Shown here piece after piece: positions 3,571 through 5,456 of a stretch of DNA of 13,692 nucleotides (positions are counted from its first letter, which is position 1; each line of letters opens with the position of its first letter). The notes under the pieces are model-generated. The model saw only the letters and a list, made by a program, of their open reading frames with translations. It did no database searches and had not been told where the DNA came from. The translations under genes were made by a program, and so were the position numbers. This DNA comes from a virus (Duplodnaviria; Heunggongvirae; Uroviricota; Caudoviricetes), in the IMG/VR virus record IMGVR_UViG_2660238346_000020. One strand, given 5' to 3'.

Positions 3571-4149
3571 TTAGCCGTTAAGTTTAACTGCCAGACCTGC
3601 GACATATTCCCCTTGATAACGAGCAATAGACAGTTCTTCCTGGCTGGGCTGGCGTGAACCGTCACCGCCTGCGATGGTGGTTGCGCCGTACGGCGTACCG
3701 CCGCGAACCTGTGAAACGTCAAATAATTCCTGCGCTGCGTAGCCAATGGGGACAATCACCATGCCGTGATGCGCAAGGGTCGTCCAGGTGGATGTGATGG
3801 TTTGTTCCTGACCGCCGCCAGTACCGGTGGAACTAAAGACGCTCGCCAGTTTTCCGTATAGTGCGCCGGAAGCCCACAGGCCGCCCGTCTGGTCGAGGAA
3901 GGTACGCATTTGACCGGACATGTTACCAAAGCGGGTAGGTGTACCAAAAATAATGGCGTCGTAATCGGCCAGTTCTTGCGGGGTTGCAACCGGTGCAGTT
4001 TGCGTTTTACCGCCTGCTTTTTCAAATAATTGCGGCGGCATGGTTTCCGGTACACGCTTAACGACAACTTCTGCGCCATCCACTTTGCTTGCACCCTCAG
4101 CAACTGCGCGTGCCATCGTTTCAACATGTCTAAGGATATGCTTTATCAT
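3571..4149 (-). CDS. wrbA: WrbA NAD(P)H:quinone oxidoreductase (flavodoxin-like) with a prophage-derived replacement N-terminus (192 aa)
   Basis: From [37 protein letters not shown]... to the C-terminus it reads as WrbA. The first residues MIKHILRHV replace the canonical [15 protein letters not shown] recalled for K-12, which contains the flavodoxin FMN phosphate-binding loop. The ORF is intact but the product is probably non-functional or altered. Confidence 0.8.
4112..4131. other. Approximate prophage/host junction (att core) inside the 5' end of wrbA
   Basis: Inference: the sequence leftward of about 4125 matches the recalled K-12 wrbA 5' coding sequence (ttgaaacgatggcacgcgcagttgctgagggtgc on the minus strand); rightward of about 4130 it diverges and runs straight into the integrase 3' end. 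Exact core limits need alignment to an uninterrupted wrbA. Confidence 0.5.
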
Positions 4150-5456
4150 TTTGAAAAATATAATTTTATTTCATCCTCCTGGTCACTTTGGGGCACGTCT
4201 GGGGCACGGGCATTAAGGACATTATTCAGCATAGCAACCTGAGTCACGCTGCACTCAGGCATCCATGCACCATAAACATTGTAGACCATGCTGGCGCTGG
4301 AGTGCCCCATCTGTGATGCAATAAATGTCGGGTTTGCTCCGGCAGATAAAGCCCAGCACGCATAAGTATGGCGTGACTGATATGCTTTCCGGGCTCTTAT
4401 ACCCGCTCTTTTCATTGCTGAGTCCCATGTTGCCCCGATGGAGCTTACCGCATAGTTAATACCCGCCTTGTGATTCTTGCGAACGATTTGCGGACAGAAA
4501 ACAAAAGTGCACTCGTGCAAAATTGTTCTTCCGTACTCGCGTAATTTAACGGTGATCTGATGCTGCCTGCCAAGACGAGTAAGCATCGCCTGGTTTTTAA
4601 GTGCTTCAATGGCTGGTGCCAGAAGATGTATAACCCGGTCGGTGCCAGCATCAGTCTTTGGTAGCGTAAAATCACCTATTTTTGTAAAATTTCTTCGCAC
4701 TGTTATCGTGCCAACTTTCAGGTCGATATCCTCCCATGCAAGTGCGGCAATTTCACCATGTCGCATCCCCGTAAAAACAGCCACTGTCCAGAGGTTTTTG
4801 GTCTGTTGATGATGACAGGCATCAATGAGGCGACCAAACTCCTCTCTGGTCAGTGGATCTGGCACAGGTTTTGATTTCCTCAGTGGTGTTATTGAATTAA
4901 ACGGGTTTTTCTCCAGATACCCGTTTTCAGCGGCAAAGCTGAACATCCCGGCAGTTGTTGTCATGTAATAGTTTACCGTGGGGACTGTTCTTCCTTTGTT
5001 GGTGGAAGTGTTTTTCCTGCTTTCCTTTTCCCCAGTCAGTAAATCTTTCCTGATGAACAGCAAATCCTCTTTTGTAATCGAGGATGCCAGTCTACCCACG
5101 CCAAGCCTCGGTAGCATATTTTTCATCACTGATTGATAACGATTTAAGGCGTTACTACTGATTTCCATTGCTTTCAGAGTAAGCCATTTCTGTGCCAGTT
5201 CACCGACGGTGATATCTTTTTTTACCAGGCCAAATAGCTTCAGGTTAGGTGAGTCAGGGAATCGCTCGGCATAATCAAACGTTCCTGTTCTGATTGCAAA
5301 GCAGACCGAAGCCCTTAACTCACCAGCGATCTTTCTGTTTTTCGGTGTATCGGGCACGCGAAGATTTTCGCGCACTCGTTTACCCCTGTACTTAAACGTT
5401 ATTCGGAGTTTTCCTCCGTGATTTTCAACGCCGGCTGGATAGGCTGAATTCGCCAT
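4146..5456 (-). CDS. int: Phage integrase, tyrosine site-specific recombinase (436 aa from the ATG at 5456)
   Basis: C-terminal catalytic region with the conserved recombinase residues ([11 protein letters not shown]; SRHTYACW...[13 protein letters not shown]). ATG at 5454-5456 has a strong AGGAGG RBS 4 nt upstream; the listed ORF extends 8 codons further to a GTG. The stop TGA overlaps the wrbA ATG. Confidence 0.9.

Follow-up and report, generated by a model that had tools for sequence, protein, structure and literature searches.

Does a prophage that enters a gene through its 5′ end, and leaves an open reading frame (ORF) of almost native length behind it, leave a working gene? The question is raised by wrbA, encoding the NAD(P)H:quinone oxidoreductase WrbA, in the stretch of DNA filed as IMG/VR virus record IMGVR_UViG_2660238346_000020 (13,692 nucleotides, hereafter the window), where this gene runs into the integrase gene (int) of a lambdoid prophage. 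Stx phages and related lambdoid phages classically integrate into this gene, which is held to be disrupted as a result. An earlier note on the sequence of the window had proposed that the frame of the gene survives the insertion with a substituted, phage-supplied N-terminus. The explanation that we favour, and that we hold to be highly probable, is that the locus is an attL junction produced by integration of the 933W/Sp5 type, that the wrbA ORF found there looks intact but is functionally inactivated, and that its open frame is accidental.

The wrbA-int junction is an attL site

The window was aligned with attB of an uninterrupted wrbA gene (strain JA0072) and with the two prophage ends, attL and attR, recorded for VT2-Sakai in AP000422. 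All attachment-site, wrbA, yccJ and phage features given below lie on the minus strand. The attB sequence reads ..TACG GACAT A TTGAAAC GATGG.., attL reads ..CTTA GACAT G TTGAAAC GATGG.., identically in the window and in Sakai, and attR reads ..TACG GACAT A TTGAAAC CATGAAGCATTAA... Rebuilt from the two phage arms, attP is ..CTTAGACATG TTGAAAC CATGAAGC.., and the host flanks of attB are ..TACGGACATA TTGAAAC GATGGCAC... Common to the four sites is the 7-bp crossover or overlap region TTGAAAC (4118-4124), which coincides with the misc_recomb feature ‘attachment site’ of AP000422. It is part of a 13-bp common core, GACAT(G)TTGAAAC (4118-4130), in which base 4125 is a G in attP and attL and an A in attB and attR. 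The phage-specific G stays next to int and the host-specific A at the opposite end, which places strand exchange inside TTGAAAC, at 4118-4124. The core present in the window at 4118-4130, GACATGTTGAAAC, matches the Sakai attL exactly, with wrbA on one side and phage DNA on the other, and wrbA is noted in the AP000422 record as ‘divided by the insertion of prophage’. Comparison with JA0072 also showed that the native 5′ end of wrbA differs from the sequence of the window and placed the crossover at codons 15-17, in agreement with the position inside the 5′ end of the gene that had been claimed for the prophage. The phage attP would thus have recombined with attB in wrbA codons 15-17, yielding attL at 4118-4149.

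The rebuilt attP was covered over 100% of its length, at 96-99% identity, in 11 phage genomes, among them Stx2 converting phage I, Stx1 converting phage, EDL933-Stx and phi191, and several of them annotate an attachment site there; the IMG/VR contig L019 likewise carries attP. The int region itself has 95-96% DNA identity to 87 records of Stx or wrbA phages, including VT2-Sakai. No second copy of the core and no displaced wrbA 5′ fragment, which together would make up attR, were found in the window.

An int-wrbA fusion could also arise as a chimeric join in a draft assembly, and the window does match a 13.7-kb draft contig, CDRO01000207.1, whose other join, at 9176, contains Ns. The junction was nevertheless found, identical in every base, in 216 of 5426 complete E. 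coli genomes and in prophage records with annotated att sites; closed genomes encoding the identical hybrid protein have it as well. An assembly artefact, to which we give practically no chance, is refuted by these data. The exact hybrid protein of the window is recorded on at least 1000 contigs, that of E. coli ED1a being one. We conclude that positions 4118-4149 of the window are the attL junction of a lambdoid prophage of the 933W/Sp5 (VT2-Sakai) family in E. coli wrbA.

The hybrid ORF and what it replaces

The ORF present at the junction (wrbA′, 3571-4149, 192 amino acids) is an in-frame fusion of the 3′ part of wrbA with 25 phage bases that happen to include an ATG. These bases, ATG ATA AAG CAT ATC CTT AGA CAT G (4125-4149), supply codons 1 to 8 and the first base of codon 9, and no Shine-Dalgarno sequence stands upstream of them. 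The host-only part (3571-4117) begins with base three of the native T17 codon, ends with the stop codon and is identical to WrbA of the Protein Data Bank (PDB) from residue 16 on; DNA identity to uninterrupted wrbA extends over positions 3571 to 4130 in more than 5000 genomes. Aligned with the wrbA product of JA0072, the hybrid has 7 phage-encoded residues, MIKHILR, in place of native residues 1-13. Native H14 is kept as hybrid H8, native I15 becomes V9, and hybrid residues 10-192 correspond to native residues 16-198, 183 residues that are all identical. The hybrid protein is 6 residues shorter than native WrbA (192 versus 198 amino acids).

At 4146-4149 the plus strand reads TCAT, and the coding strand ATGA, where the TGA stop codon of int overlaps the ATG of the hybrid ORF by two bases. 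To the hybrid ATG, the final Lys codon of int contributes its last A and the int stop codon TG. This overlap, noticed in the first examination of the window, is read directly from the sequence. Together with the promoter and the Shine-Dalgarno sequence of the gene, 38 bases from the 5′ end of wrbA have been displaced to attR at the far end of the prophage, outside the window; as judged from the attR sequence, the fragment left there would encode a short product only.

The residues exchanged include those most conserved in the N-terminus of the family

We next asked what the substitution removes. Conservation was computed over 37 representatives of the WrbA family, at most 50% identical to one another. 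In this set, G13 was invariant (37/37), S10 and an aromatic Y/F8 were present in 35/37 sequences, and Y9, as well as an aromatic residue at position 12, in 30/37. Positions 8, 9, 10, 12 and 13 of this motif are all deleted in the hybrid, and with them beta-strand 1 and the S-x-Y-G loop. The hybrid accordingly gave no full-length WrbA match including strand 1 and loop 1 (consensus K-V-L-V-x-Y-Y-S-x-Y-G-H). Its alignment to PDB WrbA starts only at residue 11/12, and the NCBIfam profile is covered over positions 13-199, compared to 1-199 for the native protein, positions 1-12 being unmatched. With the Pfam profile FMN_red, the match begins at profile position 17 for the hybrid and at position 2 for native WrbA, and the score with Flavodoxin_1 falls from 40.7 bits for the native protein to 22.8 bits for the hybrid, under the cutoff of 25. 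Alignment and family conservation together bear out the proposal that the phage-supplied N-terminus replaces beta-strand 1 and the loop that follows it.

In WrbA crystal structures, residues 10-15 presumably anchor the phosphate of flavin mononucleotide (FMN), as loop 1 does in homologues. Our argument on FMN contacts in WrbA is built on the family conservation computed here and on two such homologous cases: in ChrR, FMN phosphate is anchored by loop 1 (PMC3338774), and in related quinone reductases by loop A (PMC4274662). With G13, S10, Y9 and Y12 deleted and loop 1 having this role in homologues, the cofactor-binding defect that the earlier note had thought probable finds support: the hybrid product, if made, would very likely be defective in FMN binding. 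It probably folds or assembles abnormally, and is possibly unstable.

The hybrid was also modelled with AlphaFold, using an alignment of 38 sequences, and the model was compared to known structures with Foldseek. Mean pLDDT (predicted local distance difference test) was 67 in the first 10 residues and above 90 elsewhere; the model has a strand of 3 residues only, helix 1 starts from residue 7, and there is no loop 1. Since the overall fold is expected from the 186 native residues, AlphaFold and Foldseek were used solely for the low confidence and the shortening of the N-terminus, and not as evidence on folding or FMN binding.

Expression of wrbA′ would depend on int

The native Shine-Dalgarno sequence GAGGAG and the region upstream of it are replaced by AAATTATATTTTTCAAA. 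Neither the native wrbA promoter and Shine-Dalgarno sequence nor the displaced 5′ fragment are present in the window, and a pattern scan detected no terminator-like structure between int and the hybrid ORF. Transcription of wrbA′ would therefore have to enter through int, which agrees with the dependence on read-through from int suggested earlier, and translation would need re-initiation at the ATGA overlap, independently of a Shine-Dalgarno sequence. In a prophage that is repressed or decayed, both steps should be weak. Since yccJ (3323-3550) is the second gene of a wrbA-yccJ operon (RegulonDB as cited in PMC4222967; RNA sequencing in PMC4161252), it is cut off from the operon promoter along with wrbA′. 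With the conserved motif deleted and the native promoter and Shine-Dalgarno sequence gone, loss of wrbA function is very likely.

Several observations weigh against this conclusion. Functional inactivation, which we consider very likely, is inferred from sequence. The AlphaFold model keeps a WrbA-like fold, with a template modelling (TM) score of 0.98 to PDB entry 3b6i, and its residues 2-4 occupy the place of strand 1; H14, a residue of the loop, and the remaining FMN and substrate pocket are kept, and a folded, apo-like hybrid protein is possible according to the model. Shortly before the hybrid ATG, at 4186-4157, the sequence weakly resembles a promoter; because the total number of sites in the promoter scan was below the expectation from shuffled sequences, this match was not used. 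Finally, the hybrid frame and its ATG are retained in all close relatives seen, but these are 96-97% identical overall, so that the point carries little weight.

Is the open frame an accident or a device of the phage?

A frame that stays open across an integration site could have been selected, or could be fortuitous. The phage arm was shuffled 20000 times and read in the wrbA frame: an ATG was met before a stop codon in 24% of the shuffles, and any start codon in 47%. In attP itself, the ATG of the hybrid opens an ORF of just 14 codons. Among integrases that are 68-70% identical and use another site, the phage-side core is similar (TCCTTAATACCCGTCATGTTAAC compared to ATCCTTAGACATGTTGAAAC); the phage-side bases are therefore best explained as an Int core-binding site. 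Close relatives of the window vary at hybrid residues 3 (K/N) and 7 (R/S).

A second integrase lineage was informative. In L027 (IMG/VR UViG_2713897198_000005, 2491-3089), from another enterobacterial species, an integrase 75% identical to that of the window is inserted at the same wrbA codon, and the wrbA site is therefore used by a wider integrase family. The hybrid ORF of L027 starts with GTG, the int stop codon lies 18 bases before this start, without ATGA overlap, and the N-terminus would be (M)IYSNKGHIETMAHAV. We infer that neither the open frame nor the overlap is a phage function: both follow fortuitously from the attP core and the int stop codon. The related idea that the phage N-terminus is a diverged copy of the native one (MIK.IL compared to MAKVLVL) was rejected, given that the motif is missing, that the related integrase yields an unrelated N-terminus, and that the Int core site is conserved.

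Alternative explanations

By integrating, the phage might repair the gene, MIKHILR standing in for strand 1 and the hybrid being a working, perhaps altered, quinone oxidoreductase, in the manner of the replacement 3′ ends that other phages carry. The presence of an open frame with an ATG start in all close relatives and of the exact hybrid on at least 1000 contigs would fit such a repair, as would the loose resemblance of MIKHIL to MAKVLVL and the model in which residues 2-4 form a strand and the fold is kept. But a repaired enzyme would have to do without G13, which is invariant, and without the conserved residues Y9, S10 and Y12; its loop would be 6 residues shorter, and it would have neither Shine-Dalgarno sequence nor promoter. 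Moreover, the second Int lineage produces an unrelated N-terminus at the same site, 24-47% of random arms would leave the frame open by chance, and the phage-side bases are accounted for by the Int core-binding site. We regard repair as improbable. A separate possibility is that the ATGA-coupled hybrid is a real, phage-controlled product, re-initiation whenever Int is translated, at lysogenisation or induction, yielding an FMN-free WrbA variant that might have a new role; we hold this to be very improbable. If true, the variant might for instance alter the binding of partners, or else quinone or redox handling, when the phage switches. The fusion would then act in lysogenic conversion, as a cryptic function that hundreds of E. 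coli, pathogens and commensals alike, have conserved.

The insertion could alternatively be a regulatory switch of the active lysogeny type, in which excision by Int and Xis restores native wrbA-yccJ under quinone or oxidative stress. Both int and xis are intact in the window, excision restores wrbA precisely, and a preprint reports changed oxidative-stress and irradiation phenotypes after loss of 933W (bioRxiv 10.1101/2022.08.08.503262). The window nevertheless contains neither attR nor the 5′ wrbA fragment. Its phage DNA is a 5-kb remnant in which exo is frameshifted and recE truncated, so that excision can probably not take place in this genome; no sign of regulated, non-lytic excision at wrbA was found. 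There is in our opinion only a slim chance that a switch is the explanation of the locus. The outcome that we favour remains that of an inactivated gene, whose 192-codon ORF resembles wrbA to profile-based annotation.

The prophage remnant and the rest of the window

The integrase responsible for the junction is a tyrosine recombinase of 436 amino acids, encoded from an ATG at 5456 (4146-5456; the mechanically called ORF has 444 codons and extends to 5480). It was identified by DNA identity and by its Pfam domains, PF12167 (Arm-DNA-bind_2, 90.3 bits) and PF00589 (Phage_integrase, 62 bits). Two TGCCCCA repeats lie within the 3′ end of int (4189-4206), and four further copies are found on the other attP arm in related phages; by their sequence and position these repeats are probable arm-type Int-binding sites. 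The gene next to int encodes an excisionase of the DUF1233 family in Pfam (5509-5793). Pattern matching further revealed, upstream of xis-int and between xis and a DUF4222 gene, a strong, GC-rich hairpin followed by a run of T (5820-5837). It is a candidate terminator, through which early-left transcripts would run on into int and wrbA′ only when antiterminated.

Phage-derived DNA extends from 4125 to 9176, where it ends at a join with microcin genes, and comprises int, xis, the DUF4222 gene, a frameshifted exo, bet, gam and a 5′-truncated gene of the recE family. The lambda-type exo gene (YqaJ, 6138-6813) is split into overlapping ORFs of 173 and 65 amino acids, compared to a single gene of 226 amino acids in otherwise 99.9%-identical prophages, which indicates a frameshift and decay of the prophage. 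The recE-family gene, of 690 codons in intact relatives, is interrupted at 9176. The phage element visible in the window, about 5 kb up to 9176, thus counts as a remnant or as an incompletely seen prophage.

The join (9170-9183 in the window, 9170-9182 in L096; also L100) is where DNA of the recE-family gene meets the microcin H47 cluster, at a point 72 bases ahead of mchC. Draft contig CDRO01000207.1 (GCA_001373195.1) differs from the window by 7 Ns placed exactly at the 9176 join and by 3 bases of IS1, and a second, short contig of the same assembly carries the ordinary sequence upstream of mchC. No match to the join was found among the species-representative genomes searched, and when the whole window was compared to complete E. 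coli genomes, the best coverage was 56%. The join may be a real deletion, from the prophage to the serX island, or a scaffolding artefact. In the former case, attR would have been removed and the wrbA lesion would be irreversible. Either way the wrbA-int junction is unaffected, as it is confirmed in closed genomes.

Beyond the join, from about 9178, are the microcin H47 cluster genes mchC, with a premature stop (466 amino acids compared to 516 in strain 95-3322), mchD, mchE and mchF, of which 263 codons remain before an IS1 beginning at about 13450. These export and maturation genes (9250-13692) are degraded, and mchB and mchI are absent.

The window is E. coli chromosome, and on the other side of the junction cbpM, cbpA, agp and yccJ precede the hybrid ORF. 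Overlapping self-matches at 1-277 (1-176 against 102-277, about 98% identical) point to direct repeats, each about 101 bp long, on the downstream side of cbpM; their copy number varies between strains. The cbpA-agp spacer (1510-2043) is devoid of the yccE-family gene, of about 419 amino acids, which is present there in O157 and O145 strains and in some relatives (L086, L091 and L095).

Comparison with other integration events

The junction of the window resembles the attL of 933W and Sp5 (VT2-Sakai), both Stx2 phages, and that of further lambdoid prophages integrated in wrbA (those compared were Stx1a and Stx2a phages of O26, O111 and O104:H4, and PPwrbA elements) in integrase family, xis, TTGAAAC and the 13-bp core. 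It also shares with them the position in wrbA, the ATGA overlap and the type of hybrid ORF. The Sakai hybrid starts with MINHILRHV and that of the window with MIKHILRHV, a difference of one residue; the latter variant is also that of ED1a-like commensal and B2-type strains, with a prophage whose early region is recE-gam-bet-exo. Unlike these, the prophage of the window is cut at 9176, and neither stx genes nor attR are visible in the window.

Site-specific insertion in a gene by a tyrosine recombinase, with a full-length ORF left behind, is also known from e14 and phage 21 in icd and from integration in tRNA genes. In such 3′-end integrations attP bears a near-copy of the displaced gene end, and the product is unchanged (PMC3603311). 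In contrast to these cases, it is here the 5′ end that is displaced, together with promoter and Shine-Dalgarno sequence, and the codons that the phage supplies bear no relation to the native codons and do not include the conserved motif. As for native WrbA, a type IV NAD(P)H:quinone oxidoreductase (PDB 2R96, 3B6I, 3ZHO), the hybrid is identical to it over residues 10-192 and its predicted fold superposes on it (TM 0.98), whereas residues 1-13, which make up strand 1 and contribute S-M-Y-G to loop 1, the native promoter and the Shine-Dalgarno sequence are missing.

Automated annotation counts the disrupted gene as intact

The integration of Stx and related lambdoid phages in wrbA, and its disruption by them, are already known; what is added here is a systematic mis-annotation. 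wrbA has been listed among genes disrupted by phage integration (PMC3603311), and the older, manual annotation of VT2-Sakai treats it as disrupted. With the NCBIfam models NF002999 and TIGR01755, the hybrid scored 325.5 bits (cutoff 141) and 322.8 bits (cutoff 132.5), well above both thresholds. In the 60 best occupied complete genomes, including O104:H4 outbreak strains, it is given the RefSeq name ‘wrbA: NAD(P)H:quinone oxidoreductase’ by the Prokaryotic Genome Annotation Pipeline in all 60 cases, with no pseudogene flag. The prediction that the gene would pass automated annotation as intact wrbA was thus borne out.

The consequence can be seen in the preprint on loss of 933W mentioned above, which describes a ‘G25A, Val9Ile’ mutation of wrbA, read as an altered attB. 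This change is the difference between attL and attB, the G at 4125 and V9 becoming the native A and I15, and is an artefact of the use of the hybrid ORF as the wrbA reference. Loss of a prophage can in this way be misread as point mutations in wrbA. With the exact hybrid protein of the window on at least 1000 contigs under the name of wrbA, and the attL hybrid so named in 60 genomes out of 60, pan-genome, core-genome and variant analyses will score the gene as present and intact in lysogens.

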